A DNA stretch of 64,000 bases from an uncultured Heliobacteriaceae bacterium (GTDB taxonomy: Bacteria > Acidobacteriota > Blastocatellia > RBC074), in the NCBI GenBank assembly GCA_964468345.1, contig CAYXVZ010000012.1, positions 10,122 to 74,121 on the forward strand. Direction: 5' to 3'. Each line of letters begins with the position of its first letter. Positions within the stretch are counted from its first letter, which is position 1. Position numbers and translations under genes: made by a program. Of the stretch, positions 1,450 to 61,332 are shown piece after piece. Under the pieces are notes generated by a model. That model was not told the DNA's origin and ran no database searches. It saw only the letters and a program-made list of their open reading frames with translations.

Positions 1450-1562
1450 AGAGAAAAAGAAACGGAACAAACGGAAATAGCGGAACAGACGGACAGAAAA
1501 CCAATATAAGCGTTTCCGTCTGTTCCGATATTTCCGTTTGTTCCGTTTCTCTTTCTTCTCTT
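1450..1562. repeat. long near-perfect inverted repeat (hairpin) between two membrane-protein genes
   Basis: The arm GAAACGGAACAAACGGAAATAGCGGAACAGACGGACAGAAA pairs with TTTCCGTCTGTTCCGATATTTCCGTTTGTTCCGTTTC. The stem is about 45 nt. Confidence 0.6.
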
Positions 1563-4028: not shown

Positions 4029-4119
4029 AAGCCGCGAAGCGCTCCTTATTTCAGTCAGGATAAGGAGCGCTTCGCGGTTTTTATTTTATAGCACGCGGGG
4101 ACGCGTGCGTACCCAGGGT
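3992..4119. terminator. 128-bp near-perfect palindrome acting as a bidirectional terminator between convergent genes
   Basis: GGGTACGCACGCGTCCCCGCGTTCTATAAAATAAAAGCCGCGAAGCGCTCCTTA faces its exact reverse complement across the loop TTTCAGTCAGGA. It overlaps the stop of the YfhO gene and lies 2 nt from the stop of the minus-strand gene 4121..5038. Confidence 0.6.
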
Positions 4120-5038: not shown

Positions 5039-5170
5039 TCAGATTCCCCCCTCGACATTGTCTTTCAAGTGGTGCCGGCTCCGGCGTTTCCGTCAGCCCG
5101 CACATTTAAGTATAGCGAAGAACGCTGCTTCGCGACAGTTTGAACGAGCCGGACGGGAGCGGCTTGCAGA

Positions 5171-5340
5171 GGTCTGGAAAAGTCTCGGGAAGTCTGGAGA
5201 GGTCTAGAGAAGTCTTTCACTCCACATTGCGTTTTGGACCCCAGGGTGAGACTTCTCCAGACTTTTCAAGACTTTTCAAGACTTTTCCAGACTTCCCCAG
5301 ACTTCCCCAGACTTCCCCAGACTTCCCCAGACTCCTACTC
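5171..5340. repeat. inverted array of decamer repeats (GTCTGGAGAA / AGACTTCCCC units, 10-bp period), family B copy 1
   Basis: AGACTTCCCC occurs four times in tandem and faces GGTCTGGAAAAGTCTCGGGAAGTCTGGAGAGGTCTAGAGAAGTCT on the other arm. The array is intergenic, between the recX stop and the start of gene 4121..5038. Confidence 0.7.
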
Positions 5341-5829
5341 CTCAAACATCCCCTCCGGATTCCGCGTCACGTCGCGAATCTTGCGGCGGACCAGGTCGTA
5401 TTGGAAGCCACGCCGCATCAGATAATCGAAAAGCTTTTTGATTTCCTCGGGCGTCCGCGGGATGCCTTTGAGGCGGATTCGTTTTTCCAGGGCGGTGGTG
5501 AGCAGGGCCTCTTCGTCGTGCTCTTCGTAAGCCTGCTCGAGCGCCTCTTCGACGGCCTGGGCGGGCAACTTTTTCCGCTGCAGATCGCGGCGGAGCCGCA
5601 CCCGGCCGAGCGGTTTCATCGTCAGGCGCGAGTTTGCAAAGTTTGCGGCGAACTGTTCGTCGTTCAGATACCCGAGTTCCCGCAAGCGCTCGATGACTTG
5701 TTCGATGCTCTGGGCATCGGCCCATTCCTTTTCGGCCAGCCGCGATCGCATCTCGGCGATCGTCCGGGGCTTATAGGAAAGCAGCCGCAGGGCCCGCTCC
5801 ATGGTCTTTTCATAAGGTGTTTTGGCCAC
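5335..5829 (-). CDS. recX: recombination regulator RecX
   Basis: 164-aa product with the characteristic three-repeat helical architecture and RecX-like motifs (KTMERALRLLSYKPRTIAEMRSRL, LGYLNDEQFAANFA). Confidence 0.75.
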   Translation of the reverse strand: MAKTPYEKTMERALRLLSYKPRTIAEMRSRLAEKEWADAQSIEQVIERLRELGYLNDEQFAANFANSRLTMKPLGRVRLRRDLQRKKLPAQAVEEALEQAYEEHDEEALLTTALEKRIRLKGIPRTPEEIKKLFDYLMRRGFQYDLVRRKIRDVTRNPEGMFEE

Positions 5830-11093: not shown

Positions 11094-11504
11094 TGCAATC
11101 CGCTACTGAGCAACCATTGCCAGCGTTCGGCGAACTGCAAAGAGACGCTAATCATTTCTGTATTGATTCAAGGCAGGCAAAAGCAAAATCTTCTTAGCGA
11201 TTCGGGTAACTTCTACCCGGATTCTTCAATCGGCCCGCAGGTGCGTGAAGGTGATTTTGCAAGATACTGTATTTACAGGATTTATGGTAAGTTGAGGTGG
11301 CGAGAATCTCTGGCATCATCCTTGCTTTATACAGGGTGGGGCAACGAGATACCAGGTGGAAATTCTCCACTGACGGTGTCAGGTGATTATCAGGGTGAGG
11401 AAGATAGTCACCAGAATCAGGCGCTGCAGATCTCCCACGACTGCAGCGCCTACTTTTTTATCCGCCATCCTTTCCCTTCATCATAAAATCTTTGTAGAAA
11501 TCAA

Positions 11505-11580
11505 AAGGCAAATATCAAAAGGCAAAAGTGAAGAAGAATACTTCACTTTTGCCTTTTGATATTTGCCTTTTGATTTCTTC
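11505..11580. repeat. family C hairpin element (AAATCAAAAGGCAAATATCAAAAGGCAAAAG ... CTTTTGCCTTTTGATATTTGCCTTTTGATTTC), copy 1
   Basis: Near-perfect hairpin of about 76 bp directly abutting the stop of the minus-strand metalloprotease gene. Confidence 0.7.
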
Positions 11581-14208
11581 TTAGCGAACCGCGATCGTCA
11601 CCTGCCGGCTGGGAATGCCGTTGCGCGTAATCACGAGGCTATGGATTCCCGAGGAGATGTTTTCGGGCAGATGGATGTTGATCTGATTCAGGCCGGTGAA
11701 GCCTGGCGCGCGGCCCGCATAGCCGACGATGGTTGGGACGCCATTGATCAAGGCCTGAACGTTGGAACTGACATCCCCGCCGCCATCGGTTGCATCGGCG
11801 CCGAGTCCGGTGGCAAAGAGTGCGAGAATCGTCGGCAGGCCGTTGGGCTGCTTGGGATTGAAAGGCGCGCCGCCGCCGCGAATCGCGTCCACTGCAACGG
11901 CCGGGCCGTTCCCACTTGCGTCCACCGTGAATACCGCCGGCGCGGTCGGCGCGATCTGCACCGCGCCCGCCCGGATCCGTTTACCTTCGTTAAAGACTTC
12001 GATCAGCGCCGTAGCGGAGGAAGCCTGCGGTGTCAGCGTCGTTGCAGCGGTTGTGCGCGGGATTTGAAAGTTGATCTGATTCGCCGAAACGAAAAACAGC
12101 GGCGCGGGAACGCCATTGATGCGAATCTGCAAATTGGAAAGTGTTGTCGGCAGCGGATTCGTGAACGCGAATCCTTCGCCAGCTACGAAAGCCGTTCCGA
12201 ACAGGGAGGCGATCGCTCCGGGCGCAAGAACCGGTTGGTAACTTGCCGCCGACGCCGCCACGACCGCGCGAGAGGGACCATCCGCGGAAAGTCCCGTGTT
12301 GATGGTCGCCATGAGATCCGTCGACTGTCTGAAATAACTCTCAAACGCGAAGCGGTACAATTGAACTTTATCGAGCAAGCCGTCCGATACCGCCGTGTTC
12401 TGGCGAGTCACCAGGACGACCGCGGTGCGAAAGCTTCGCTGGCTCTTATCCGGCTCCGGCAGGCGCGTATTGTTCGCCTGCACGATGTCTTCCACCGCGA
12501 CGCGCTGGCGGAATCCACCGGTTGTAACGCCGGGTTGCGGCGCGGAGTCTTTGGTCGACGCGCTGCCGGCCGGATTGACGATGACGAAAGTCTCTCCCAC
12601 CGTTGAGGCCGAGCGAAAGCCCATCAGATATTGATCCAGCCGCGAATAGCCATCGACCAGTCCGACCGATGTGAATGTGCCGTTCGCATTGTCGACCCAG
12701 GCATTGCCTTCCAGCGAAGAAGAGCGACGGGCCGCCGGATGGCTGATGGTCGATTCCGTGTTCAGGAAGAAATTCCAGTGGGCATTGTCGCGTCCGAGAA
12801 GCGCCAGGTCCGTGCCCGGAAATTTCACGAACGAGAGCCAGCGATGGCCGAGTTCATGCGCCATGATCGAGAGCCCGTGATTGGCGCCCAGAAAACGCGT
12901 TGTGGGAAAGGCGGGATAGGCGCTGGAAATATTGCTCAGGTTCAAAATGCCCTGTATCCTCCGCGATCCCAGCAAGTCCGTCGTATCCGGATCTGATTGC
13001 GGCAGCCCGATGCCGGTCGCATCGTTGCGCACCGGATCGTAAAAGGCGAAGGCTCCGCCGAGGTCATAGTCGAAATCGGTGAAGAAGGAAATGAAATCGT
13101 AATTGTCCTGGTTCGGATGCGTGTCATAAAACGCTTTCACCGCGGCCAGGTAATCGAAGCGCGTGGTCAGCGAGAAGAACTCCGCGACCGGCGTGTTGAT
13201 CGATTCGTTCGGCGGCAGGCTCAGATCCACGAGCCGCGGCGTCGTTCGCGACTGCCCCGGCGTAATGCCGACCAGGGCCTGCGACGTCAGCGTTGCCGCA
13301 TCATAGGTGAACGCGATTCGCCCCGTGTTGAAGAGGGTGATCTGAAATCTGTGAACGCCATTGTCCGTGCTCGGATTGCTTGGGAAATCGCGGACATTGC
13401 TCCAGGTGAACATGACGCGGTCCGCTGACTTGCGAACGTAAACGCCGTTCTCGCCAGGCAGAGCGGCTGGTCGCGCATCCAGATCGTGCCAGTAGGCCGC
13501 GATGCGCGGCAGGCCGGTTTGAAATTCCGAAAGCTTTGCCACGGAACTCACCGCGCCTTTATCAAAGGCAGCTTGACTCGTTCCCCCCGGCCGAAAGACC
13601 AGATTGCCGTTCGACGTCAATGCGACGCTGGAATAATTAACACCGAAGAAATTGAAATCGAACCCCAGGTCTTCGATCAGATAGGCGTCATCGCCGGGCT
13701 CGGCGTTGCCGAGCGGATTCACCGCCGGCGCAACGCTCAGGTCGCGGCGCGCTCCAAGATTGTTATCGAACAGGGAACTGGTTGTGGCAATGGAATAGCC
13801 ACTGTTGGCGGGTGTAAAGCTGACGGCGCGCAGATTCAAATCGAAAAATCTCGGCGCAATGACAAGTCGGGCATCGCCCTGAATCACGGTTATGTCGTTA
13901 ATGTCCTGTGAGCTGGTTTCCGCTTTAAGCGCCATTGCGGCGCTGCCTTCCGGCCCGCGGAGTGATTGTTGATTGGCTTCGTGCCAGACGCGGGCTTCAG
14001 CGGATTGCTCTTCACGGGTCAGCGGATTTTTTGTCGCATTTCCATGTACATCGCCCAGACGCGCGACGCCCATACTGCGGGCTTCAGTCGGCCGTTGGTC
14101 GGCCGTCGGCATCATTCGCCCGAATAGCGATGCCGTGAGGAACAAGGCGATAATCGTCGAGATCAAGATGAGGAGACGATTCATCGCGCGCGTGCTGCGG
14201 GTGAACAT
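11581..14208 (-). CDS. secreted zinc metalloprotease (HExxH) with tandem C-terminal Ig-like/Solibacter-type domains
   Basis: Signal peptide and the MAHELGHRWLSF zincin motif. Two C-terminal repeats of about 100 aa end in ...LVITRNGIPSRQVTIAVR. Confidence 0.6.
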   Translation of the reverse strand: MFTRSTRAMNRLLILISTIIALFLTASLFGRMMPTADQRPTEARSMGVARLGDVHGNATKNPLTREEQSAEARVWHEANQQSLRGPEGSAAMALKAETSSQDINDITVIQGDARLVIAPRFFDLNLRAVSFTPANSGYSIATTSSLFDNNLGARRDLSVAPAVNPLGNAEPGDDAYLIEDLGFDFNFFGVNYSSVALTSNGNLVFRPGGTSQAAFDKGAVSSVAKLSEFQTGLPRIAAYWHDLDARPAALPGENGVYVRKSADRVMFTWSNVRDFPSNPSTDNGVHRFQITLFNTGRIAFTYDAATLTSQALVGITPGQSRTTPRLVDLSLPPNESINTPVAEFFSLTTRFDYLAAVKAFYDTHPNQDNYDFISFFTDFDYDLGGAFAFYDPVRNDATGIGLPQSDPDTTDLLGSRRIQGILNLSNISSAYPAFPTTRFLGANHGLSIMAHELGHRWLSFVKFPGTDLALLGRDNAHWNFFLNTESTISHPAARRSSSLEGNAWVDNANGTFTSVGLVDGYSRLDQYLMGFRSASTVGETFVIVNPAGSASTKDSAPQPGVTTGGFRQRVAVEDIVQANNTRLPEPDKSQRSFRTAVVLVTRQNTAVSDGLLDKVQLYRFAFESYFRQSTDLMATINTGLSADGPSRAVVAASAASYQPVLAPGAIASLFGTAFVAGEGFAFTNPLPTTLSNLQIRINGVPAPLFFVSANQINFQIPRTTAATTLTPQASSATALIEVFNEGKRIRAGAVQIAPTAPAVFTVDASGNGPAVAVDAIRGGGAPFNPKQPNGLPTILALFATGLGADATDGGGDVSSNVQALINGVPTIVGYAGRAPGFTGLNQINIHLPENISSGIHSLVITRNGIPSRQVTIAVR

Positions 14209-18368: not shown

Positions 18369-18492
18369 AAGGCATTTCCTCTGATTCGGATTCGGAAGGG
18401 AAAGACGAGAACACGAAACAATCGAAACTTTTATTGTCGCTTCAACCTTGATCATCGTATCGGTCACTGGACCAAACAGCAAAAGAAGAGTT

Positions 18493-18582
18493 CACCGCGA
18501 AGAAACGAAGAGCACGAAGTTTGTTCCGTATTTTCTTCGTGCTCTTCGTTTCTTCGCGGTGAAAACATCTCCTTGAGTTCCA
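18493..18582. repeat. family A hairpin element (CACCRCGAAGAAACGAAGAGCACGAAG ... CTTCGTGCTCTTCGTTTCTTCGYGGTGAAAACAT), copy 1
   Basis: Perfect 27-nt terminal inverted repeats around a 15-nt loop. It sits between the start of the secreted protein gene and the stop of the kinase gene. Confidence 0.75.
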
Positions 18583-18640
18583 TGCCGCTGGCTGAAATGA
18601 CGACCATCGCTGTCATTTCGTTTGTTTCGTGCTCTCCCGA

Positions 18641-21190
18641 TCAATTCGCCAGGCCGACGCGGGCCAGCACCTGCTGGAAGCGCGGATGCTTGCGCAGCGG
18701 ATCGAAGACCGGCTCGACCTGCAACTCCATCAGGCCGCCGTCGCGCTCCGCAACCGCGGTTTCTAGCGCGGCCAGGGCTTTGTTCTGCTCTCCGATTCGC
18801 AGCAGCACGGCCGCAATCGCCGTCGAGGGAACGTAGCGTTCTTTCGACTCCGCCGTCAATTGCGAGAGATATTCCCGCCAGAACGATTCGCGGCCTTTCG
18901 AATACGCCGTTTTCAGGGCATTGACGTGTTCGGGAGCTCCCCGGCCCAGTTGTTGCGCGCGGATGAATTCCAGAATCGCATCCTGCGGCTGGCCTTTCTG
19001 TTCCAGAACGAGGCCCAGGCTGGAGTGCGCCGGGCCGTAATTGTCATTGAGCAGCAGCGTCTGGCGAAGATGATCGACTGCATCGTTATAGTCTCGCGCA
19101 TAATAAGACACCGTGCCGAAGGTCTGATTGACGGGCAGGGATTTCGGATCGAGTTTGCGCGCCGTTTGCAGTTCGGCATTCGCTTCGGCCGTCTTTCCCT
19201 GCAGGGCCAGAAACTCCGCATACCGGAGGCGCGGCGTCGCGTTTTTCGGCGCGAGTTCGATCGCCCGTTTGAATTCGCGCTCAGCCTCGCTCAGATTCCA
19301 ATCGTAGCGCAGGTAAACCTGCGCCAGCGTCAGGTGCGCGTCGGGCAGATCGCTGTTCTTGCCGAGCGCGATGAGGGCGACGTCTTTTGCCTTTTGCATT
19401 CCTTTGCGCGGCGGCAGGCCGTCGGAATTCAGCGCGTGACAGGCCGCGCAGCCCGCGGCCGCCAGCGAATAGGACGGATCTTTCGCGAAGGCGGCCTCGA
19501 AAAATTCATCGGCTTTTTGCCGGTCTTCCTGCGTTCCGCGGTTCCAGTGATAACGGCCTTTCAAAAACAAATCATAGGCTTCCGGGCTGTTCGGCATGGA
19601 CTTCGCGAGGCTTGCGGCCGCCGCATCGCTCAATCGGAATTCGAGTTTGCCGGTGATGCTGCGCGAAATTTCATCCTGAATCGTGAGCAGGTCGGAAAGC
19701 TTTTTGTTGAATCGCTCGCCCCAGATCTGTCGCCCGTTGCGGGTGTTGACCAGTTCGGCATTGATCGTCAGGTTGTTTCCGCGGCGTTCGATGCGGCCGA
19801 GCAGAACGGCCTCTACATCCAGATCGCGGCCGACGGCGCGTTCGTCGATCTGTTGTCCTTTATAACGGAAGACCGAATTCCGCGCGCTGATGCTCAGGTC
19901 ATCCCATTGCGAAAGGGAATTGATGATGCCTTCCGTGATTCCCTCGCTCAGGTACTCCGCGTCCGCATCGCCCGTGACATTGACGAAGGGCATCACGGCG
20001 ATCGTGTCGATTCTGGCGGCCTGCTGTTGATAGCGCGTATAGAAAAAGGCGCCCGCCGCCGCCAAACCCAGCAACAGAACCGCCAGCGCCGGCAGCAGAA
20101 GTTTGCGCTTTTTCTTCGGTTCCGCCTGCGGCTGCGGCATCGGCGTCACGATCGTTTGCACCGGCTCGGCCACGGAAGGAATGGCGCTGGTCTCATAGCT
20201 GAAATGCTCGCCGGAGGCCGGCGTCACGACCGTGTCGAGACCGGCCGAGCCGATCAGGCCCTCGACATAGGTCGTCTCGAGATGCACGGCGGGATCGGAT
20301 GAAATCACGGGAATTCCCTGATCGAGCGAATACTCCAACCGCGATTTGATTCGCTTGAGCGCGGTGATGACTTCATAGCCGTACTGAAATCTCTCTTCCC
20401 GGTTTTTGGCCAGCAGCTTATAGATCACCTCTTCGAGTTCGATCGGAATGCCCGGGATGCGTTCGGACGGGCGCGGCGGAATGCTGGTCAGCAGGGCGGC
20501 GATGATGTCGCTTGTCGTCGGTCCCGCGAAGGGACGCTCGCCGGTGATCATTTCATAGAGCACGACGCCGAGGCTGAACAGATCCGTGCGGCCGTCGAGC
20601 TTTTGCCCGCGCGCCTGTTCCGGCGACATATACGCCACCGTGCCGATCACCAGCCCGGGTTGCGTCTGCAGCATCGATCGCGTGTTGACCATCGCTTCAT
20701 CGAGGTCGGCGGTGTCCGTTTCCGTCAGCTTCGCCAGGCCGAAATCCAGGACTTTGATATAGCCATCCGGGCGAAGCATGATGTTCTCGGGTTTGATGTC
20801 GCGATGAATGATGCCCGCATTGTGCGCCGCGCCGAGCGCGCTGGCCGTCTGAATCGCAATTTCGAGCGCATCGCTCAAGCTCAGCTTTCGTCCCGCAATC
20901 GCATCTCGCAGCGTTTGCCCCTCGATGAACTCGGTCGCAATGAAGTGCGTGTCCTCCGTCCGGCCGATATCGAAGATCGTCAGGATGCTCGGGTGATTCA
21001 GGCCCGAGGCCGACCGCGCTTCATTCTCGAAGCGCCGCACGCGAAGCTCATCCTGCATAAACGTTTCGGGCAGAATCTTGAGCGCCACCTTGCGCCGCAG
21101 CCGCTCATCCTCCGCGAGATAAACCTCGCCCATTCCGCCCGCGCCCAGCTTTTTTATGATGCGATAGTGTGAAAGCGATTGCTCGATCAT
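18641..21190 (-). CDS. Ser/Thr protein kinase with transmembrane segment and C-terminal TPR repeats
   Basis: The kinase starts at MIEQSLSHYRIIKKLGAGGMGEVY with catalytic loop HRDIKPENIML and DFGLA. A TM helix and TPR-like repeats follow. The ORF continuation upstream to 21298 runs into a GC-rich hairpin and is rejected. Confidence 0.8.
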   Translation of the reverse strand: MIEQSLSHYRIIKKLGAGGMGEVYLAEDERLRRKVALKILPETFMQDELRVRRFENEARSASGLNHPSILTIFDIGRTEDTHFIATEFIEGQTLRDAIAGRKLSLSDALEIAIQTASALGAAHNAGIIHRDIKPENIMLRPDGYIKVLDFGLAKLTETDTADLDEAMVNTRSMLQTQPGLVIGTVAYMSPEQARGQKLDGRTDLFSLGVVLYEMITGERPFAGPTTSDIIAALLTSIPPRPSERIPGIPIELEEVIYKLLAKNREERFQYGYEVITALKRIKSRLEYSLDQGIPVISSDPAVHLETTYVEGLIGSAGLDTVVTPASGEHFSYETSAIPSVAEPVQTIVTPMPQPQAEPKKKRKLLLPALAVLLLGLAAAGAFFYTRYQQQAARIDTIAVMPFVNVTGDADAEYLSEGITEGIINSLSQWDDLSISARNSVFRYKGQQIDERAVGRDLDVEAVLLGRIERRGNNLTINAELVNTRNGRQIWGERFNKKLSDLLTIQDEISRSITGKLEFRLSDAAAASLAKSMPNSPEAYDLFLKGRYHWNRGTQEDRQKADEFFEAAFAKDPSYSLAAAGCAACHALNSDGLPPRKGMQKAKDVALIALGKNSDLPDAHLTLAQVYLRYDWNLSEAEREFKRAIELAPKNATPRLRYAEFLALQGKTAEANAELQTARKLDPKSLPVNQTFGTVSYYARDYNDAVDHLRQTLLLNDNYGPAHSSLGLVLEQKGQPQDAILEFIRAQQLGRGAPEHVNALKTAYSKGRESFWREYLSQLTAESKERYVPSTAIAAVLLRIGEQNKALAALETAVAERDGGLMELQVEPVFDPLRKHPRFQQVLARVGLAN

Positions 21191-21203: not shown

Positions 21204-21356
21204 AGGGGGGAGGGGCGAGGGATGAGGGGCGAGGGCAGAAGATTGATTCTCCGCTGCTGCCTTCGATTATTGGGTGCGTGGCAAGTAATGCCTTTCACTC
21301 GCCCCTTGTCCCTCTCCTCTCGTCCCTTTCTTCTCGCCCCTCGCCCCTTTCCTTCG
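21204..21356. repeat. GC-rich GGGGCGAGGGGCGAG-type palindromic element (family E), copy 1
   Basis: GGGGAGGGGCGAGGGATGAGGGGCGAGGG faces CTCGCCCCTTGTCCCTC...CTCGCCCCTCGCCCC. The element is intergenic. Confidence 0.55.
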
Positions 21357-25560: not shown

Positions 25561-25565
25561 AGGCA

Positions 25566-25640
25566 GGGGGAAGGGAAGAGGGGCGAGGGGCGAGAGAAAA
25601 CTTGCCTCTCGCCCCTCGCCCCTAACCCCTCGCCCCTTTC
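25566..25640. repeat. family E GC-rich palindromic element, copy 2
   Basis: GAGGGGCGAGGGGCGAGAGAAAACTTGCCTCTCGCCCCTCGCCCCTAACCCCTCGCCCC. Confidence 0.55.
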
Positions 25641-25644
25641 TTTT

Positions 25645-27273
25645 ATGATTGGCACAACCATCGGCAATTACAAAATCACCGGGGAACTGGCGAAAGGCGG
25701 GATGGGCGCGGTGTATCGGGCGCATCACGTGACGCTGCCGCGCGAAGTGGTCGTGAAATCCATTTTGCTTTCCTCGTTTCCGCCGCATCTGCAGGAACAG
25801 CTCAAGACGCGTTTTCTGCGCGAAGCGCTGGTGCAATCGCAACTCGACCATCCGAACATCGTGCGGGTGCTGGAATTTTTCGTGACGGAGGAGAACTATT
25901 TTCTGGTCATGGAATACGTCGCCGGCCTGAGCCTGCGCGATTTGCTGCGCCGGCAGGGACGACTGAGTCCCGAACAGGCATTGCCGTTGTTCAAGCAGGC
26001 GCTGAGCGCGCTCGAATACGCGCACAATTTCACCTATGTCGATGAAGGCGGCGGGCGCTACACGGGCATTACGCATCGCGATATCAAGCCGGGAAATTTT
26101 CTGCTCGACGGCATGGCGCGGTTGAAACTGACGGATTTCGGCATCGTCAAAACCGCGACCGAACAGGGAATGACGCGGACCGGATTCAATCCGGGCACGG
26201 CCGAATATATGTCGCCGGAACAGATTCGGGGCGCGAAAGTGGATACGCGATCGGACCTCTATAGCCTGGGCGTGACGTTTTATGAAATGCTGGCCGGGCG
26301 GCTGCCCTTTCCGCATACCGATGCCGGGTCGGAATATGAAGTGATGCGCGGCCATATCGAACTGACGCCGCCGCCCCTGCACGAACTCGTGCCGGGGCTG
26401 CCGGCGCCGCTGGCGGCGATCATCACGAAAGCGCTGGAAAAAGATCCGAACACGCGCTTTCAAACCGCGACGGATTTTTTGCAGGCCGTCATTGCCTATG
26501 AGCGCCGCGGCATCACCGCGCCGCAATCCGTGCGCGCACCGCAGCCGCAGGGAACGCATTCGATGACGGAAGTGCTGCCCGTCGCGGCCCGGCCGAATAC
26601 GAATCCATCGACCGATTTGACGGCTCCGCGCGGGGCGCAGGTGAGTGCGCAGCCGACCATCGTGACAACGCCCGCGCCGGTCCAATCGACCAATGCCGCG
26701 CCGCCCGCGGCCGTGCCCGCGACCAATGTCATGCCGCCGCCCGTGCGAACGGCCGATCCCGCGCCGCGTCCTGCGCCGCCGCCTGCGCCGCCGGCATCGC
26801 AATCGACGAACAGTACCGGCTTTTTTATCCTGATTGCGCTCATCGGCCTTGCGCTCATCGGCGGCGCGGCTTTTTTCACCTTTCAGAAAAAGGTCGCCGA
26901 CGCCGTCTCGACGACGATGACGACATCGAGCCCCGCGCCGCAGATCCAGCCTACAAAGCCTCCCGCCGCAGTCGAAGATAACCGCCTTCGCCTCGCTCGT
27001 GCCGCGGAAGAAAAAGAGGAATATAAAACGGCCATTCAGCAGTACGAATCCTTCCTCGGCGAAAATGCGCAATCGGCGGAGGCCGCCGCGCTTCGCGAAC
27101 GCGTCGTCATGCTCAAAAAAGTAGCGGGTTTGCTGTCCGTCGCTGAGACCGAACTGGACAAGGAAGATTACGCCGCGGCTAAGCGCGATTTCGAAGCTGT
27201 GCTCAAGCTTCGCCCGGAGTCGAAGCTCGCGCAGGCCGGGATTCTATTGATCGAGAACGAAACGAAAAAATAA
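25645..27273 (+). CDS. Ser/Thr protein kinase with Pro/Ala-rich linker, TM helix and C-terminal TPR-like region
   Basis: Glycine loop GELAKGGMGAVYRA, catalytic loop HRDIKPGNFLL, and DFGIV. Confidence 0.8.
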   Translation: MIGTTIGNYKITGELAKGGMGAVYRAHHVTLPREVVVKSILLSSFPPHLQEQLKTRFLREALVQSQLDHPNIVRVLEFFVTEENYFLVMEYVAGLSLRDLLRRQGRLSPEQALPLFKQALSALEYAHNFTYVDEGGGRYTGITHRDIKPGNFLLDGMARLKLTDFGIVKTATEQGMTRTGFNPGTAEYMSPEQIRGAKVDTRSDLYSLGVTFYEMLAGRLPFPHTDAGSEYEVMRGHIELTPPPLHELVPGLPAPLAAIITKALEKDPNTRFQTATDFLQAVIAYERRGITAPQSVRAPQPQGTHSMTEVLPVAARPNTNPSTDLTAPRGAQVSAQPTIVTTPAPVQSTNAAPPAAVPATNVMPPPVRTADPAPRPAPPPAPPASQSTNSTGFFILIALIGLALIGGAAFFTFQKKVADAVSTTMTTSSPAPQIQPTKPPAAVEDNRLRLARAAEEKEEYKTAIQQYESFLGENAQSAEAAALRERVVMLKKVAGLLSVAETELDKEDYAAAKRDFEAVLKLRPESKLAQAGILLIENETKK

Positions 27274-28621: not shown

Positions 28622-30868
28622 TTAGTGTAACTTCGTGCGACTTCGTGGATGAAATTCGTTTTCTTGAATTCGATCGTTACCCGGATGATAGGAGCGTTCG
28701 AGATGCGCGTTGATTTCCGCCAGCGTCATGCGAACCGGTTTGAACTTGCCCGCGGCATAGAGTTCGGCCTGATCCAGATGATGCGGCGATTTCGGATCGG
28801 GGCTTTGCCCGAGCACCAGGATGGATTGTGCGCGAAGCTTTTTGCCGAATTCGACGACCGCCACGAAGGAATTGCCCGCCGTGCCATAGCGGCGCTTCTG
28901 GCCTTTTTCCGCGCGCGCTGAATAGGTAAAGACAACGCCCGCCGGCCCGGGCCCGCCCGCGACGGGGAAGCTCGGCCGCGCGTCGCTGAAAGGCTCGTCG
29001 CCCGAGGTGTGGACGCGCTGCAACCGATTGATCTCGCCCCAGGCCACGCGCCACGTGCCGAATTCCTTTTCGAGATCCCGCATGGTTTCTTCGAGCTTTT
29101 TGAGCGGATCGTCGTCTTTGCTCTTCAGCTTTTCATGCGTGAGCACAAACAGCGTTGTCGGAATGGATTCGATCGTCGCGACGAAGTTCCAGTTCGCCAG
29201 CTCCCTGATCGCCGGCGCGAGCTGTTCCGCCCGGGGCCCCTCCGTTTCGCGAAGCGCAAACCACGCCGCCAGCATTCGCTGCACGATCGGCGGCGCTTCG
29301 TTCACCGTCGTATCCGTTGCCGCCTTCGTCCATTCCTCATACGTGAATTTTTCCTGCCCGGTCAGAATGCGCAGCGAAGACTTTGCTCGCGGCGTCTGTT
29401 CCTCGGGGGCGAGATAGGCCGGGAAGTCTTCTTTTCGCGGATTGCCGAAGGCCGTCATTTGAAAGGGCGTCGAATTGCAATTCTGCAAAAAGCCGGCGGG
29501 CGGATTCAGCCGTTGCGGCAGTTCAGCGAAGGCGTGATAGCCCTTCCATTCCGTTGCCGGATCGTCGCCCGCGACCGCTTTGCTCCAGTCGAATTTCGGA
29601 TCGCGTTTCGGAACCGCATTCCCGTGCACATAAAAGATATTGCCCGCGGCATCGGCGTAAAGCGTGTTCGAGCCGGTCAAGGCTCGCTGCGACAGCGCGA
29701 GTTTAAAGGCCGCGAAGCTTCTCGCCCGATTCATCGCGAATCGTTGCACCAGTTCGCCGCCCTCTTCCATCCGGCTCGCGCGGGCCGCAACCGCTTTGCC
29801 GTTTTGCAGGCCGATGATCGGCCCGTGATGCGTCTTGCGAAAGCGATAGGCGCGCGACTCGATGCCCGCGGCGGTTTTCACGCGGACTTCGTCGGTCCAT
29901 TCGATCGCCGTGCGATAGCCCGCGCCGTAGCGATAGGCCAGCGGCCGTTTGGGATCATCGAAGCTTTCGAGATAGCCATCGACCGTGTCGGCGTAGTTGT
30001 TCGTATGACTCCAGCCCAGCCATTGATTGAAGCCCGTGCGAATGTACGGCGTGCCGAGAATGGCAAAGCCGTACACATCGATGCCTTCCTCGCTCTGCAG
30101 ATGCGCTTCATAACGCTGGCCGCCGCCGAAAAATCCCACATGCGGATTGATAAAAAGCAGCGCATGGCCCGATGCGCTTTTCGACGGCCCGGCCGCCCAC
30201 ATGTTCGAGCCTTCCGTGGGCTCGTCGCAGGAAGAATTTTCACCACGAAGAAACGAAGAGCACGAAGAAAGAGAGTCTTTAAGCAAAATGGCTCCTGCTC
30301 TCTCTTCGTGCTCTTCGTTTCTTCGTGGTTTCAACATCTCTGCTGTATTTTGCAGCGGCTCACCGATTCGTATCTCTTCTCGTTTCAGCCCATAGCGGTT
30401 CAGCGCGCCGATGCGGCTCATTCGGCTCATGGCCAGCGTGTGCCAGGGTTCAAATTTCGTGAGCAGGCGCGGCTTCTGTTCCGGATGTTTTGCGATATAA
30501 AAATTGATCCCCGCGGCGAAGGCATCGCAGAGCGCCCGCTCGCGCGGCGGCATTGCGGCGTATTCGGCCTTCGAGCGTTTTTCGATTTCAAAGGCCCGAT
30601 AGAGCAGGTCGTTTTCCAATCCCTTCTCGCCTTCGATCTCCGCCTGCCGTCCCACGGCGCGAATGAAATCGGTTTCGAGCTGCCAGAAATTGTCTTCGCA
30701 TTGCGCATACATCAGGCCGAAGACGACCGCCGCATCCGTCTTGCCGAAGATATGCGGCACGCCGTACGAATCGCGATGGATCGTCACGGACTGCGAAAGG
30801 TCAACCCTTTGCGCAAATGCTGAGCCGACGGTAAAGACGAGGAATAGCGAAAGGAACAGGCTACGCAT
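28622..30868 (-). CDS. penicillin acylase family (Ntn-hydrolase) precursor, with a family A repeat inserted in-frame in the spacer region
   Basis: Signal peptide MRSLFLSLFLVFTVGSAFAQ. The beta-subunit N-terminal nucleophile motif SNMWAAGPSKSASGHALLFINPH is present. Spacer sequence [33 protein letters not shown] is encoded by the repeat copy at 30236..30343. Confidence 0.75.
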   Translation of the reverse strand: MRSLFLSLFLVFTVGSAFAQRVDLSQSVTIHRDSYGVPHIFGKTDAAVVFGLMYAQCEDNFWQLETDFIRAVGRQAEIEGEKGLENDLLYRAFEIEKRSKAEYAAMPPRERALCDAFAAGINFYIAKHPEQKPRLLTKFEPWHTLAMSRMSRIGALNRYGLKREEIRIGEPLQNTAEMLKPRRNEEHEERAGAILLKDSLSSCSSFLRGENSSCDEPTEGSNMWAAGPSKSASGHALLFINPHVGFFGGGQRYEAHLQSEEGIDVYGFAILGTPYIRTGFNQWLGWSHTNNYADTVDGYLESFDDPKRPLAYRYGAGYRTAIEWTDEVRVKTAAGIESRAYRFRKTHHGPIIGLQNGKAVAARASRMEEGGELVQRFAMNRARSFAAFKLALSQRALTGSNTLYADAAGNIFYVHGNAVPKRDPKFDWSKAVAGDDPATEWKGYHAFAELPQRLNPPAGFLQNCNSTPFQMTAFGNPRKEDFPAYLAPEEQTPRAKSSLRILTGQEKFTYEEWTKAATDTTVNEAPPIVQRMLAAWFALRETEGPRAEQLAPAIRELANWNFVATIESIPTTLFVLTHEKLKSKDDDPLKKLEETMRDLEKEFGTWRVAWGEINRLQRVHTSGDEPFSDARPSFPVAGGPGPAGVVFTYSARAEKGQKRRYGTAGNSFVAVVEFGKKLRAQSILVLGQSPDPKSPHHLDQAELYAAGKFKPVRMTLAEINAHLERSYHPGNDRIQENEFHPRSRTKLH
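30236..30343. repeat. family A hairpin element, copy 2 (inside the penicillin acylase CDS)
   Basis: The termini CACCACGAAGAAACGAAGAGCACGAAG ... CTTCGTGCTCTTCGTTTCTTCGTGG match copies at 18493 and 50693. Confidence 0.75.
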
Positions 30869-30889
30869 GATCTCTCCAATGACAGCCGG

Positions 30890-30953
30890 GCGGACAGGAA
30901 AATGAACGACAGGAAAATGAAGCATATTTTCCTGTCGTTCATTTTCCTGTCCG
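30890..30953. repeat. family D hairpin (GGACAGGAAAATGAACGACAGGAAAAT ... ATTTTCCTGTCGTTCATTTTCCTGTCC), copy 1
   Basis: Perfect palindrome between convergent or neighbouring hydrolase genes. Confidence 0.65.
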
Positions 30954-33693: not shown

Positions 33694-33788
33694 GAAAATC
33701 AAAAGGCAAAAGGCAAATATCAAAAGGCAAAAATAGTCAGCTCCTATTTTGCCTTTTGATATTTGCCTTTTGCCTTTTGATTTCATTT
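33694..33788. repeat. family C hairpin element, copy 2
   Basis: AAAATCAAAAGGCAAAAGGCAAATATCAAAAGGCAAAAATAGTCAGCTCCTATTTTGCCTTTTGATATTTGCCTTTTGCCTTTTGATTTC. Confidence 0.7.
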
Positions 33789-41261: not shown

Positions 41262-44238
41262 TTAGTTCCGGACCTCCGCCAACAGAAGATCGCTTTTTAC
41301 CTGGGAATGCAGATAGGTGAGCCAGCGTCCATCGGGAGAGACGCTTAAGCCCCGCGAGCCCGCGCTGAAGGAGGAATTCAATTTCGCGACGGTTGAAATC
41401 CTGCCCGTTGCAAAGGGATAAAATTCGATCAGGGATTGGCTTGGCCCGACATTCGTGCCGAAAAAGATGCCGGTTTGGGTGACATCCCACATGGACCAGT
41501 ACCCGGCCTTATGCGTGTCGGTCAGAAGAGTTTCCGCGCCCGTGGTCAGGTCGATGCGCCAGAGGCCGGGAGTTTGCCTCTTCCTGACATACACCAGAAA
41601 TTTGCCATCCATGGCTTCGTGGGGCTCGATGCCGCCGTGCTTCGTGATTTGCACCGGCTCGCCGCCGCTCACCGGGACCTTGTAAATTTGCGACTCCCCG
41701 GTGCGGTCTGAACTGAAGTAAATCCAGTTGCCGTCTCGCGACCAACTGGGCGTTGAGTTATTGAAATTGTTTTGAACGAGCTTCCGTTGTTCGCCGGTTT
41801 CAAGGTGAAGTGCGAAAATGGCAGCCTTGCCGTCGAGATAGCGCGTAAAAGAAATCTGCTTTGAATCCGGCGACCAGTTTGGCCAGCCCGGCGAAAATTT
41901 CGGGTCGGAGATCAGTTGTCGCTGGTTTTGTCCATCGCTGTCGCACATCCATAACGTTTCGTTGCCGCTCAGCGCCGTTTGATACACCAGCTTTGTTCCG
42001 TCGGGCGAATAACGTTGATAAAACTCGATCTTGGTGGATCCGATTAACTTTTCGGGCGGCTGGTTGGTGACAGCAGTTCCTTTCAATCCCAGCCGCATTA
42101 CATCCACGTCATAATCGGCTTTGACATAGCACAGACGCCGGTTCTGGCGGTCATACACTCCTCCCATCAGGATGGCGTCGGGGCCCGTGAGCCGCTTGTA
42201 TTGCAATGTATTCACATCCATCTGAACAAGACCGATGGATGTGTCTTCACCCGGAGCCACGCCTGAGAAAAGTAATTCGTGATCATTTCCCAACCAGGCC
42301 AGGGAATTGATTCGTCGCATGTCTTTTGTTACTTGCCGGGCTTCTCCGCCTGCGACGGGAATCAACATAACTTCGCGACGGCTATCGGAAGCCGGCGGGT
42401 TCCTGACAAAGGCGATGGTTTTTGCATCGGGGGAAAATGCGGGCAGAAAATCACCCAGGCTTCCCGCCGCGGGGTTGGTTAATACCCGTCTTTCTCCCGT
42501 CGCCAGATTCAACAGGTTGATCCGGAGCGGCGACTGAGACGATTCACGATCTCCGAAAGCGAGCAGCGTCCCATCCGGCGACCAGGATAACTCCGAGCCG
42601 GCGATTCCCCCGGGTCGCTGCGGCGAAAGGCTGGTCAGCTTGCGCTCCGCACCTCCTCCCGTCGGAAGGACATAGATTCCGCCTTCGGATTGCGTGCGGC
42701 GAGTAAAGGCCAGACTGGCGCCGTCCGGAGACCAGGCCGGATCGTTGTCGTTTGCAGGATGGTTCGTCAGACGAAGCGTCCTTTCGCCATCGATCTCTTT
42801 GATATAGAGATCGAGATTTTCATTTTTCTCCCCTCCATAGGAGAAGGCGATTGATTTTCCATCGGGGGAAAACGCCGGCGTCGATTCCGCGCCGGAAAAT
42901 GTGGTCAGCGGATTGGGCTTGGTTATCGTCAATGGCGAAAAGGCCGGCAGTGCGGGGCGCGACTTCATTCGATAAATGGCATATCCACCGCCCGCCAGGC
43001 CAAGGCTGATCGCGGCAAGCAGGGCCGCCCGCAAATAGTTGCCGCGTTGGAAGAGTCTTTCGCCGCTCGCGGTATCCAGCGCAGCGCTGATTTCATTGGT
43101 CGATGATTCAGGCCGGAATGCCGACGTCGCGTCGCGCTGGTCATATGTCGGGGCGTCGGCCCGCAGCCGAAGTTGTTTCAGGTCGATCAGTACTTCTTGA
43201 ATGGTCTGATAGCGTTCCGCGCGATCTTTGTGCAACGCTTTCTGCACCACCCTTTGCCATTCCGCCGAGGCAAGTGTCATTGGTTCAGGCTCGCGATTCA
43301 GGATGGCGCCGATCACCTCGAAGATTGTGGCGCCCGGAAACGGTTTGCGCCCTTCCAGCATTTCATACAGCACGATGCCCAGGCTGAAGATGTCCGTCCG
43401 CGCATCGACTTTTTCGCCGCGCGATTGCTCCGGCGACATGTAACTGGCCGTCCCGATCACCATGCCGGAATGCGTCAGGCTGGATTGTGCGCCATTGACG
43501 AGATCTACATCGAGTTGCGCCAGCCCGAAATCGAGCACTTTTACATAACCGTCCCGCCGGATCATGAGGTTTTCGGTCTTGATGTCTCGGTGAATGATGC
43601 CGGCTTCGTGCGCGACGGCCAATGCCTGGCAAACCTGGATGGCAATATCGGCGGCCTCGGCCGATGACATCGGAGGGCCTTCGCGCAATCGGCTGTGCAG
43701 CGTTTGGCCGTCGACATATTCGGTCGCCATAAAATAGTCGGCTCCAGCGTGTCCATGATCGAATAGTGTGATGATATTGGGATGATTGAGCGCCGAAATC
43801 GCAACGGCTTCCTGCGCAAAGCGTCGCACACGCGCCGCGTCGTCGGCAAATGACGCGGGCAGAAGTTTCAACGCCACCTTGCGATGCAATCGCGTGTCTT
43901 CCGCCAGCCAGACCTCTCCCATGCCGCCTTTGCCGAGCAATGAGACTACAAGGTACTGATTGACTTCGCGCGGCATTGCCATCGCCGGCGCCATGGATTG
44001 GCCTTCATGCAGCGTTTGATCGTCCTGAGCGGCCAGTCCCAGCGCATGATCTTCCAACGCAAATCCGGCGATAAAGCTGCCTGCTTCCGCATGCGCAGCC
44101 AACAGCGACTGGACTTCGTGCCGCAGCTTTACATCTGTGCCGCAGACCTCGGTCAGGAAAACTTCGCGCTCCGGCGCATTCAGTTCCAACGCGCGGTAAT
44201 AGAGCTGCTCGATTTGGCGGAAACGTTCAGCGTTCATT
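41262..44238 (-). CDS. Ser/Thr protein kinase fused to a TolB-like (PD40/WD40-like) beta-propeller
   Basis: Start at MNAERFRQIEQLYYRALEL. Kinase motifs HRDIKTENLMI and DFGLA. TM helix, then repeated SPDGKSIAF/WSPDGASLAF/FSPDAKTIAF propeller blades. Confidence 0.8.
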
Positions 44239-49349: not shown

Positions 49350-50624
49350 CTATTTCTTCACGATTGCCCCGCCCTTCATTACCCACTTCACGCGTTCGAG
49401 TTCCGTGACGTCTTTGGTCGGATCGCCGTCGACGGCGATCAGGTCCGCGAACTTGCCGGATTCGATGGCGCCGATGCTCTCTTCGAGGCCGAGCAGTTTG
49501 GACGCGTGGACCGTCGCGGTCTGGATTGCCTGAACCGGCGTCATCCCCAGTTTGACGTAAACCGCGAATTCGCGGGCATTCAATCCATGCGGATAGACGG
49601 CCGCATCGGTGCCGAAGACGACGGGAACGCCCATTTTAAAGGCCGCGCCGATGTTCTTTCGCATTTCCGGCATGACGACTTTGGCCTTTGCCACCAGCGG
49701 CGCCGGCACACGCAGTTTTTCGTAGTTCTCCATAAACCAGTCGGTCAGGTAGAGCGTGGGCACGAGATAGGTGCCGCGCGCTTTCATCATCTTCACGGCC
49801 TCTTCGTCGATGTAGGTGCCATGCTCGATCGAATCGACGCCCGCCTGCACGGCGTACTTGATGCCGTCGCCGCCGTGCGCGTGCGCGGCGACTTTGCGGC
49901 CCGCGCGATGGGCTTCCTCGACGATGGTCTTCATCTCTTCGAGCGTATACTGCGCGGCCTTCGGATCGTCGCCATAAGAGAGCACGCCGCCCGTCGAACA
50001 GATCTTGATCACATTTGCGCCGTACTTGATCACTTCGCGCGTTTTCTGCATCACGCCCGGCACGCCGTCGGCGACGCCGTCCGCCTTGTGATGAAACTCG
50101 AACGGCAACAGGTTCTCATCGCAATGGCCGCCCGTGATGCCCAGGCTCGGCCCCGAGGCGACGATGCGCGGGCCGGGCACATCGCCGGCATCGATTGCAT
50201 CGCGCAGGGCGATGTCGGCATATCCGCGCGCGCCTACATTGCGCACGGTCGTGAAGCCGGCATCGAGCGTCATCCGCGCATTGCGCGCGCCGACCAGCGC
50301 TTCGCGCGGAATCGAAATCGCCATTGAATTGATTGTCGCCAGATCGAAGGTCAGGTGCGTGTGGCTGTCGATCAGGCCCGGCAATAGCGTTTTGGCTCCC
50401 AGGTCGATGACCTCCGCGCCCGCGGGAATCATGGCATTCGCGCCCGCCGCAACGATGCGCCCGTTTTCGATCACGACGACGGCATTCGAAATCAACGATC
50501 CGGTTTTGACATCCAGCATCCGGGCCGCTTTAACGGCCACCGCTCGCTGTTGGGATTGCGCCGGTTGCGGGACGGATGAAAGCGACGCGAGAGCGAGAAC
50601 GAGCAAGAGAAGGACAACGCGCAT
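49350..50624 (-). CDS. secreted metal-dependent amidohydrolase (imidazolonepropionase/Xaa-Pro dipeptidase-like)
   Basis: Start at [15 protein letters not shown] (signal peptide). Amidohydrolase motif GLIDSHTHL, conserved HAHGG, and the C-terminal D of the metal site. The ORF continuation upstream through repeat A3 is rejected. Confidence 0.75.
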
Positions 50625-50692
50625 AGAAGGGTTCCTTTGCGAATGAGGCATTGACGATCGTTTGGGCCAACGTGGCAACAAGCGAAAGAAGA

Positions 50693-50866
50693 ATTCACCA
50701 CGAAGAAACGAAGAGCACGAAGAAAGATGGAAAAAAAGAGGCCGAGAAAGGGATGGAAAGAATTGACAGATCCGGCGGTAAATTTCTCTCCGTCTCTCTA
50801 TCTCTTCATCTTTCTTCGTGCTCTTCGTTTCTTCGTGGTGAAAACATTTCTTTGAATTCCAGACCA
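50693..50866. repeat. family A hairpin element, copy 3 (longest copy, about 170 bp)
   Basis: GAATTCACCACGAAGAAACGAAGAGCACGAAG ... CTTCGTGCTCTTCGTTTCTTCGTGGTGAAAACATTTCTTTGAATTC. It is flanked by GAATTC on both sides. Confidence 0.75.
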
Positions 50867-51013
50867 CGCGCCGAAACGGCGATCAACACCGCGAATGATT
50901 CCATACTACGGGAAATTTCCTGAGAATTTCGGTGGGCGGATCATACGGCGCATCGGGCTTGCGAGTCCAGACGTGGTATACTGCGGAAAATTTTTCAGCA
51001 ATGCTCAGGGCAA

Positions 51014-52514: not shown

Positions 52515-52716
52515 TGCAGAAGGGGCGAGAGGTGAGGGGCGAGGGGCGAGCATTTTCGCCATCAGATCTCACGCTCGCCACGTTGCAGGGAAGAACAAGT
52601 TGATTGCTTTGCCGGGATCATCCCCCAAGCGCCGCGCGAACCACTCTTCGCGCGGCGTTCTTGTTTCTTGACGCAACCTGAGAGCGTCCACTATCATCAA
52701 TTGCGTTTTAACCGAA

Positions 52717-53409
<693 letters not shown>

Positions 53410-53410
53410 A

Positions 53411-53592
53411 AATGCAGGAGGCAGGAATGGGAAGGAAGCAGGAGGCAGCGGCAGTAGGCAGTACTTTTGCCGAGTTATAACTGATATTGAATCGACTTTA
53501 AGAAAATTGCGATCCTGGCTTGGACCCTGCCTACTGCTGCTGCCTCCTGCTTCCTTCCTATTCCAGCCGCTGCCTCCTGCTTCCTTCCTATA
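53411..53592. repeat. inverted repeat GCAGGAGGCAGGAATGGGAAGGAAGCAGGAGGCAGCGGCAGTAGGCAG ... CTGCCTACTGCTGCTGCCTCCTGCTTCCTTCC immediately 3' of the tRNA
   Basis: About 48-nt arms around a loop of about 75 nt. It reaches the stop of the beta-CASP gene. Confidence 0.55.
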
Positions 53593-55009: not shown

Positions 55010-55203
55010 CCCGGGGGCGCAGGCATCCCTGCCTGCCCCGGGGTCGCGGGCATCCTTGCCCGCGCGTCATTTTTCGTTAGTTTGCAGTAGAAAGGGGAAT
55101 TCAACAACTCAATTGCATTGCCGGAGCCAGGCACGCGTTTCCGAACTCGTTGACCTGCGGGCAAGGATGCCCGCGACCCCGGGGCAGGCAGGGATGCGCT
55201 CCC
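55010..55203. repeat. large GC-rich inverted repeat (arms of about 47 nt, spacer of about 93 nt)
   Basis: GGGGGCGCAGGCATCCCTGCCTGCCCCGGGGTCGCGGGCATCCTTGCCCGC pairs with GCGGGCAAGGATGCCCGCGACCCCGGGGCAGGCAGGGATGCGCTCCC. Confidence 0.6.
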
Positions 55204-61261: not shown

Positions 61262-61332
61262 TATGGGTCCCTTCAAATTGTCGTGGAGCACTCGCGACTT
61301 TAGAGCGTTTGAAACTGCGAGTTTACAAAGGA

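Follow-up and report, generated by a model that had tools for sequence, protein, structure and literature searches.

Rickettsia palindromic elements (RPEs) are palindromic repeats of about 100-150 bp that lie in frame in unrelated protein-coding genes, and bacterial MITEs (Correia/NEMIS, ERIC, RUP, BOX) are mostly intergenic with occasional in-frame ORF fusions (PMC10969869). REPs are characterised as units of 20-40 bp with GTAG or CGTC heads (PMC3733652). On the protein side, the homologous acylase precursors undergo two cleavages that release a spacer polypeptide, and in MacQ, a relative, the spacer stays in the molecule (PMC5566955). The locus described here brings these subjects together, as a hairpin repeat of a dispersed family lies within the linker-coding DNA of an acylase precursor gene.

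The window (i.e. the whole 64-kb stretch of DNA that was analysed) was scanned for the CACCRCGAAGAAACGAAGAGCACGAAG arm of the repeat, allowing up to 3 mismatches and using 100 shuffles as a null. Six matches were recovered (0 in the shuffles), and they form three hairpins, in agreement with the three inverted-repeat copies of the preliminary description; blastn-short yielded no further copy in the window. Copy 1, in its long form (18448..18606; core hairpin 18493-18561 with a 15-nt loop, arm pair 18493-18519/18535-18561), is intergenic, with the stop of a Ser/Thr kinase gene (18641) on one side and the next minus-strand gene on the other. The long form of copy 3 (50651..50885; core hairpin 50696-50840 plus a nested palindrome, arm pair 50696-50722/50814-50840) lies about 70 nt upstream of an amidohydrolase start. 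The remaining hairpin is found in the acylase gene (core 30241..30330; arms 30241-30275 and 30296-30330, a stem of ~33 bp and a loop of ~20 nt), and its arms contain the 27-nt CACCACGAAGAAACGAAGAGCACGAAG repeat (30241-30267/30304-30330, the right arm with one mismatch).

The three copies (117, 159 and 235 nt) enclose only repeat-derived open frames and no transposase. Heptamer or octamer units of the CACGAAG type, arrayed in tandem, make up their arms, the element ends read TTCACC.../...GGTGAA, and the loops range from 15 to ~90 nt and are unrelated from copy to copy. Copies 1 and 3 have imperfect inverted repeats of ~72 nt; the 27-nt core arms are perfect. The acylase copy consists of the core alone (the inner ~40 nt of each arm of the long element): the outermost ~30 nt that each long inverted repeat has in copies 1 and 3 are missing from it. 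Its arms are 100% identical to copy 3 across 36 nt. A tail previously attributed to the whole family is present in copies 1 and 3 (GAAAACAT), but the acylase copy has TTCAACAT in its place. The GAATTC seen earlier on both sides of copy 3 is located at 50691-50696 and 50854-50859. The spurious N-terminal ORF extensions ascribed to the repeat are also real, in that one reads through copy 3 (49350-50867, minus strand); as the family creates such extensions, we recommend that annotators of Acidobacteriota MAGs mask it.

The view that these copies belong to a dispersed inverted-repeat family holds beyond the window, since at least 33 further loci were found in other genomes (nearly all of them Blastocatellia or Acidobacteriota MAGs). 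The flank subfamilies are lineage-specific and the outer flanks differ among lineages, while the most conserved portion is the inner stem and not the termini. Among the ~39 family copies examined, the one in the acylase gene is the sole copy spanned by a credible gene. In other MAGs the copies have A and T runs on either side; in one of them the termini are TATAG...CTATA, compatible with a TA duplication but just as well with a portion of the inverted repeat. The source genome holds many different palindrome families, and in other MAGs such families are nested within one another. The database protein search gave no protein sharing three 5-residue words with the element peptide, no known RNA family matched the element at gathering score, and relaxed RNA-family searches returned only sub-threshold matches to generic miRNA-precursor hairpins. 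Nothing relevant was found in the literature on palindromic repeats of Acidobacteria/Blastocatellia.

The host gene (28622..30868, minus strand) encodes a penicillin-amidase-family precursor, an Ntn hydrolase resembling acyl-homoserine-lactone or cephalosporin acylases. Its 748 codons are counted from Met20 of a maximal ORF (28622-30925, minus strand, 767 aa) that is continuous through the element, and the NCBI-called protein of 748 aa (P0123) is identical to the precursor, whose signal peptide is MRSLFLSLFLVFTVGSAFAQ. The PF01804 (Penicillin amidase) profile matches in a single stretch (residues 46-739, E = 1.3e-131, 441 bits against a curated cut-off of 21.3) that covers profile positions 1-674 of 675, and no frameshift or stop interrupts the 748 codons. 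The copy is thus carried in frame by a penicillin acylase ORF, as had been proposed, and its translation there agrees with the peptide quoted in the preliminary description. More than 30 solved beta chains have their first residue aligned with Ser240 of the 767-aa ORF, which places the codon of the beta-subunit N-terminal nucleophile (the Ser of GSNMW) at 30206..30208 (minus strand). The G-S-N-M-W motif is invariant in 44 sequences, and 206 of the 211 near-invariant columns of the family are kept (5 changed, vs 0-4 in other members).

The element-derived segment (30227..30343, minus strand; 117 nt, 39 codons) is delimited by where similarity to copies 1 and 3 begins and ends, its boundaries being good to within ~5 nt. 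It codes for residues 176-214 of the 748-aa protein and ends 6 codons ahead of the nucleophile Ser, so that the position formerly suggested for it, just upstream of the nucleophile and in the alpha-beta linker, agrees with the solved beta chains. On the minus strand the element is stop-free only in the frame that is used. The linker or spacer coding region spans 30209..30346 (minus strand; residues 175-220), and in the AF2 model these residues form the only long low-confidence stretch (pLDDT below 50). The element supplies 39 of the ~50 residues between EIRIG and GSNMW. Spacer lengths differ widely among acylases, from ~10 residues in cephalosporin acylase through 23 in PvdQ to 54 in E. coli PGA. 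The solved alpha chains end ~38-49 residues past query residue 131 (i.e. near 169-180), just before residues 176-214, and by this extrapolation of length it is plausible that the element peptide is removed together with the spacer. We stress that, as MacQ keeps its spacer, excision is not to be assumed.

None of the orthologues examined, which comprise 43 aligned proteins and 80 loci from metagenomes, has the residues coded by the element. As to their number, the ~35 added residues of the preliminary description correspond to ~39 that are element-coded, but the net linker gain relative to typical orthologues is ~15, with ~24 native residues missing (including the LDLTALQSWFDE motif, conserved in most orthologues). 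Judged from these alignments, the event is an insertion plus loss or replacement and not a simple insertion. That it involved insertion follows from the absence in orthologues and from arms still 100% identical to copy 3 when the nearest full-length orthologue (L039) has 71% protein identity. Between that orthologue and the same-species cluster, whose members all carry the element, no empty-site allele was found; in an allele without the element the adjacent flanks would be ...CTGCAAAAT and ...GAGCCCACG.

We reason that the core of a dispersed palindrome was probably incorporated into the linker DNA and has since been kept as a tolerated passenger in an intact gene. The repeat would have been amplified lineage by lineage across Blastocatellia genomes, and its core would have entered the DNA that encodes the flexible alpha-beta linker of a secreted acylase precursor. 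Three properties may account for the survival of this copy, namely a length that keeps the frame, arms that are stop-free in any frame and, in the frame used, a hydrophilic, Ser-rich peptide. The peptide lies in a disordered and highly indel-tolerant segment that, by analogy with solved relatives, may be excised or remain as a loose tail upon self-cleavage of the precursor at Gly-Ser, and the enzyme would presumably remain active. Most probably the element is a passenger that the gene tolerates rather than an adapted part, and a single genic copy out of ~39 fits such a status; nothing indicates that it has been domesticated as a linker, as had been proposed.

Whether the host gene has paid for the insertion bears on the next reading, in which the acylase was inactivated or crippled and the ORF stays open only because the event is recent (an incipient pseudogene). 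The loss of native linker residues, including LDLTALQSWFDE, could impair maturation; the five altered near-invariant columns exceed the number in any other member, and arms still identical to those of other copies suggest a recent event. A point against the tolerated-passenger reading itself is that RNase III would be likely to cut, and translation to be hindered by, a perfect RNA duplex of ~33 bp within an mRNA, so that acylase expression may be compromised. We nevertheless regard inactivation as unlikely, given that the 748 codons are uninterrupted, that the catalytic motif is kept along with the great majority of near-invariant positions, and that the nearest orthologue is intact though it too lacks LDLTALQSWFDE. 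Furthermore, cephalosporin acylases with a shortened spacer still self-cleave (PMC5566955). Population data point the same way: in each of five SRA runs a Logan contig, with 98.7-100% identity to the window, starts at base 30264/30265 of the window, within the arm adjoining the beta-subunit coding sequence, and strains that differ by 1.3% in DNA share the arm-to-beta-subunit junction.

The linker itself varies in sequence among orthologues and, within the aligned slice, spans 79-145 residues. When 82 orthologous genes were folded in sliding windows of 120 nt, linker outliers appeared only in the window and in L039, L051 and L049, and no comparable hairpins were detected elsewhere in these acylase genes. 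L039 carries an unrelated palindrome with 37-nt arms in the same interval, L051, when compared with L050 and L095, an in-frame insertion of 48 nt that is palindromic, and L049 six tandem units of 18 nt. No other copies of the palindrome arms of L039 and L051 were present in the 659 kb searched, a result that is uninformative as this sequence comes from outside their own genomes. Because two other orthologues carry unrelated palindromic insertions there, the linker is, on the sequence comparison, a recurrent permissive site. A conserved regulatory hairpin as a general feature of the linker was considered and rejected, the rest of the 82 genes being unremarkable.

The same recurrence could be read as selection on the hairpin, the RNA or DNA structure serving to pause translation, to attenuate or terminate transcription or to direct mRNA processing, with the peptide incidental. 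Independent and unrelated strong palindromes do occupy one short interval in the window, L039 and L051, and the acylase element on the coding strand folds into a very stable ~33-bp stem (-69.3 kcal/mol, z = -9.7 vs shuffles). We hold this to be quite improbable, as ~77 of the 82 orthologues have no outstanding linker hairpin, the family is otherwise intergenic, and the coding-strand stem is followed by GGUGAAAAUUCUUCC and not by a U-tract. The terminator/promoter scan flags none of the elements, a result that its 3-8 nt loop limit makes uninformative for these hairpins. A simpler account of the recurrence is that purifying selection removes indels everywhere in the gene but the linker, where alone they persist.

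A comparably doubtful reading is that the Blastocatellia hairpins constitute an undescribed class of elements that spreads via existing palindromes or hairpin-prone DNA and not by classical cut-and-paste. The features cited for such a class are arms of short tandem units, unrelated loops, many families of one architecture per genome, and nesting. Should it be true, the acylase linker, whose very same interval houses unrelated palindromes in sister lineages, would have seen one palindrome take the place of another. Very improbable is a local origin without a pre-existing repeat family, through a template switch or an inverted duplication of neighbouring sequence: although the linker palindromes of L051 and L039 contain copies of the native sequence beside them and have the look of such an origin, the window arms share 27-36 identical nt with two copies that lie 12 and 20 kb off, and they match dozens of copies in other genomes. 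Least credible of all, to the point of being nearly negligible, is an assembly artefact (a chimeric join at the repeat): short-read assemblies do break at the hairpin repeat (5/5 Logan contigs end in it), but the two sides are correct, in-frame halves of one acylase, the same junction recurs in five independent assemblies, and the loop sequence of the acylase copy is unique.

Returning to the tolerated passenger, the acylase insertion is a clear example of a known event, in which selfish palindromes are tolerated inside genes (RPE-like, as in Rickettsia), and it reveals no new mechanism. It illustrates that selfish palindromic DNA can persist in the gene of an essential-fold enzyme provided that its point of entry is a disordered linker between subunits, and that in several Blastocatellia lineages one and the same linker has taken up palindromes or repeats independently. 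For enzymologists, it offers a natural experiment on the load of foreign sequence that the spacer of an Ntn-acylase tolerates.

Set against the described systems, the locus most resembles the RPEs (by description), as in both cases a peptide is added at a structurally permissive place without the gene being destroyed (PMC10969869). They differ in that RPEs are marked by numerous in-frame insertions across many genes and by a conserved family-specific peptide, whereas here one of ~39 copies is genic and its peptide occurs in no other database protein; the phylum is another one, the arms consist of heptamers in tandem, and the loops of the copies bear no relation to one another. The 'MITE-like' label of the preliminary description fares similarly. 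Like MITEs, the elements are short (under ~300 bp), non-coding, devoid of transposase, multi-copy, dispersed and mostly intergenic, and their terminal inverted repeats form a long hairpin when folded. In contrast to MITEs, it is the inner stem and not the termini that is most conserved, and the loops are variable and unrelated; no direct repeat indicative of a target-site duplication was found at the ends of copies 1-3, and none of the six window arms flanks a transposase that could mark a cognate IS. GAGTTC/GAATTC were considered as target-site duplications and rejected, since the similarity of copies 1 and 3 continues beyond them. The name 'MITE' thus denotes resemblance and not demonstrated membership. 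With the RAYT-mobilised REPs/BIMEs the family shares the abundance of intergenic palindromes, but its arms measure 27-35 nt, the whole element 70-235 nt, and it has no GTAG or CGTC head. Finally, the host protein follows the plan of the penicillin G, cephalosporin and AHL acylase precursors (MEROPS S45), with a signal peptide, an alpha subunit, a linker and a Ser-initiated beta subunit, and departs from them in that most of its linker is encoded by a repeat element.

The penicillin-acylase-family gene that harbors the second hairpin repeat of the window (copy 2, the acylase copy; hereafter the element) appears, as judged from its sequence, to be free of decay signs. The open reading frame (28622-30925, minus strand, 767 codons) runs unbroken through the element, as the preliminary description had proposed, and the likely start of the acylase is Met20 (at 30868, signal peptide MRSLFLSLFLVFTVGSAFAQ), which yields a 748-aa protein identical to one in an NCBI record (P0123). 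A single, unbroken match to Pfam PF01804 (Penicillin amidase) covered residues 46-739 of the acylase (441 bits); its closest solved relatives were glutaryl-7-ACA (cephalosporin) acylase precursors, with PvdQ and penicillin G acylases coming next. Residue 1 of more than 30 solved beta chains aligned to Ser240 of the 767-aa ORF (Ser221 of the 748-aa protein, codon 30206-30208), the G-S-N-M-W motif was invariant in a 44-sequence alignment, and 206 of the 211 near-invariant columns (>=42 of the 43 other sequences identical) were kept in the acylase, while other members break 0-4 of them. A subgroup of orthologues of ~900 aa (P0062, P0064-P0072, P0077-P0079) was found to carry an extra PF00160 cyclophilin-type peptidyl-prolyl isomerase domain.

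The element-similar part (30227-30343, 117 nt) is read as 39 codons (residues 176-214 of the 748-aa protein) and ends six codons ahead of the nucleophile Ser. In an AlphaFold2 model based on the 44-sequence alignment (mean pLDDT 78.7, pTM 0.82) the sole long low-confidence stretch (residues 175-220, pLDDT <50) contains the whole element-coded peptide; the initially described position in the alpha-beta linker, just ahead of the nucleophile, holds. In solved relatives the mature alpha chain continues for 38-49 residues past the position aligned to query residue 131, and so ends near query residues 169-180; by extrapolation of these lengths, the element peptide would lie in the spacer region rather than in either folded subunit. 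Enzymes of this group usually free a spacer polypeptide by two cleavages, self-cleavage persists in cephalosporin acylases with a shortened spacer, and in MacQ the spacer stays inside the molecule (PMC5566955). Since MacQ is a counter-case, excision of the element peptide cannot be assumed by analogy with the relatives, and the suggestion of a mobile element domesticated within a removed segment was overstated, passive retention being favoured.

Thousands of relatives were recovered by the protein search, the majority of them from Blastocatellia or other Acidobacteriota; the top full-length match was 71% identical. When aligned, none of the 43 orthologues had the element residues, in line with the insertion first envisaged. 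Between the alpha-domain end and the nucleophile, the aligned orthologues have 79-145 residues and the query 107; the motif LDLTALQSWFDE, found in most aligned orthologues, is missing from the query. Between the conserved anchors EIRIG and GSNMW a typical orthologue has ~35 residues versus 50 in the query (39 element-coded and 11 native), so that the net gain is ~15 residues and ~24 native ones are gone. Judged by these lengths, the event reads as an insertion plus loss, or as a replacement; the ~35 added residues reported earlier overstate the net gain. The arms of the gene copy are 100% identical to copy 3 over 36 nt, suggesting that the event was recent or that the copies have been homogenised. 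The 90% cluster of the protein comprises three truncated proteins from Logan (assemblies of SRA runs), whose five contigs, from five SRA runs, match the window with 98.7-100% identity over 2.4-4.7 kb. As all five start within the arm adjoining the beta-subunit coding sequence (window base 30264 or 30265), the element (which breaks short-read assemblies) is present at the same site in several samples, including a strain with 1.3% difference.

The 27-nt motif CACCRCGAAGAAACGAAGAGCACGAAG had six matches in the window (<=3 mismatches) versus none in 100 shuffles. These form three inverted pairs, in agreement with the three family copies originally noticed (arms 18493-18519/18535-18561 in copy 1, 30241-30267/30304-30330 in copy 2 and 50696-50722/50814-50840 in copy 3), and blastn-short found no further family copy in the window. 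All three pairs fold as long hairpins (copy 2: 30215-30355, minus strand, -69.3 kcal/mol, z = -9.7 vs shuffles; copy 1: 18455-18600, ~-72 kcal/mol on either strand), the loops of which are unrelated in sequence (15 nt in copy 1, ~20 nt in copy 2; in copy 3 ~91 nt separate the 27-nt arms and hold a further nested palindrome). Copies 1 and 3 have ~45 further nt in common on each side, these flanks being imperfect inverted repeats (long form, by similarity of the two copies, 18448-18606 and 50651-50885), and the acylase copy comprises only the inner ~40 nt of each side of this long form. Direct repeats flanked none of the three copies, and the GAATTC/GAGTTC hexamers near the ends (GAATTC on both sides of copy 3 had been noted earlier) were rejected as target-site duplications because they lie inside the stretch common to copies 1 and 3. 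Stop codons are absent from all six frames of the family arms, and the coding strand of the acylase copy has a single open frame, the one in use. At the right flank of this copy (30329-30334) we observed GGTTTCAACAT where the family has GGTGAAAACAT; on the coding strand the change equals a 5-nt inversion (TTTCA to TGAAA), converts EMFSP to EMLKP and leaves the stem 4 bp shorter.

At least ten other local palindromes of similar architecture (arms of short tandem units, e.g., GAAGTCTGGA, CAAAAGG, GGGGCGA, ACGGAA) were observed in the window (1452-1556, 3992-4117, 5149-5343, 11491-11586, 21211-21354, 25565-25643, 33696-33783, 52521-52554, 53420-53568, 55023-55197, 61322-61515 and 63622-63670). 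Several sequence families are represented, some of them by 2-3 copies within the window, and the density approximates one hairpin per 5 kb, mostly intergenic. Widely separated segments of the window (20549-20827 and 43359-43613; also 26194-26313) share 73-78% identity and probably represent Ser/Thr kinase paralogues. A group I intron match (53148-53331, plus strand; Rfam RF00028) scored 55 bits, the gathering score being 50. After it come a tRNA-like T-arm and acceptor 3' end (53380-53410, ggttcgaatcctacaggggcca); no obvious 5' tRNA half was seen upstream, and in the whole window ARAGORN detected neither a tRNA nor a tmRNA.

Beyond the window, an exact 22-nt core of the family was present in at least 33 stretches of GTDB genomes; among the core matches listed, nearly all were from Blastocatellia or Acidobacteriota MAGs (metagenome-assembled genomes), plus one Planctomycetia and two Hydrogenedentota MAGs. 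Almost all listed copies are hairpins, with arms of CACGAAG-type heptamer or octamer units in variable number and unrelated loops of 15 to >100 nt. The sequence just outside the core differs lineage by lineage (TATAGnnTTCAAGAAAA...TTTTCTTGAnnCTATA in one MAG; AAAATCAACC...GGTTGATTTTC, with a terminator-like A run and T run, in others; GTTCACC...GGTGAAAACAT in the window), which indicates that the family amplified lineage by lineage. Among ~39 copies examined, only the acylase copy was spanned by a credible gene (other spanning frames were rejected as Arg-rich antisense artefacts), the remaining ones lying after a stop codon and ahead of the following ribosome-binding site. No proteins sharing three 5-residue words with the element peptide were found among the representative proteins of a large database, and no Rfam family scored above threshold at the element. 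Five stretches from other MAGs (L013, L020, L027, L017, L007) hold a conserved ~30-nt module, (G)GAGTCGTTCATGTCGnnnTGAGCGACGCC, 15-25 nt from the CACGAAG hairpin, which in L020 and L027 can be read as a Shine-Dalgarno site with an ATG, two codons and a TGA after it. In the Planctomycetia MAG (L002, 3303-3440) the partner arm is made of CTTTGTG, not CTTCGTG, units, so that only one of the two strands has G:T wobbles in its stem, which may hint at a constraint acting on the RNA in this lineage.

Sliding 120-nt folds were computed over the DNA of 80 further orthologues and of the nearest one (L039), and strong outliers placed in the linker were registered for the window, L039, L051 and L049. In L039 (4542-4627; protein P0002, 71% identity) an unrelated in-frame palindrome (37-nt arms, 89% complementary, -80.9 kcal/mol) occupies exactly the interval of the window element, GEPLQ to EP(T/I)EGS; it adjoins a 21-nt tandem duplication (PLQYGAA/PLQYGER). 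Compared with L050 and L095, the orthologue stretch L051 (892-966) has 48 nt inserted in frame, of palindromic or duplicative type (GGAACAG units, -63.9 kcal/mol), and L049 (1918-2061) has an 18-nt unit repeated six times that encodes (SAGAPK)n, the two insertions being independent. A conserved functional hairpin in the acylase linker is unlikely, since the same scan gave ordinary linker folds, with none unusual, in the remaining ~77 genes. Nor did these folds reveal any comparable hairpin outside the linker of the orthologous genes, and the simpler reading suggested is that the linker alone tolerates such insertions.

The passive account is the best supported. A core copy of the genomic palindromic repeat would have entered the linker-coding DNA (candidate routes being short-form transposition and exchange with another copy by recombination or template switching) and would have been kept because the frame was preserved and the hydrophilic peptide falls in a segment that is disordered and is probably cut out or left dangling. 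RNase III cleavage or ribosome stalling at a perfect 33-bp RNA duplex may still lower expression. Within the gene the element does not resemble an intrinsic terminator, as the coding strand has no U-tract after the stem.

Compared with known element classes, REP identity was rejected (the size and ends of the element are wrong). The MITE-like label of the preliminary description fits the inverted repeats, small size and multiple copies, but target-site duplications were not seen at copies 1-3, no cognate IS is known, and the inner stem, not the termini, is best conserved; the element thus resembles MITEs, while membership in the class is not established. Occasional ORF fusions occur in other MITEs too (e.g., ERIC, BOX). 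By analogy, the closest precedent is provided by the Rickettsia palindromic elements, which often lie in frame within genes (PMC10969869).
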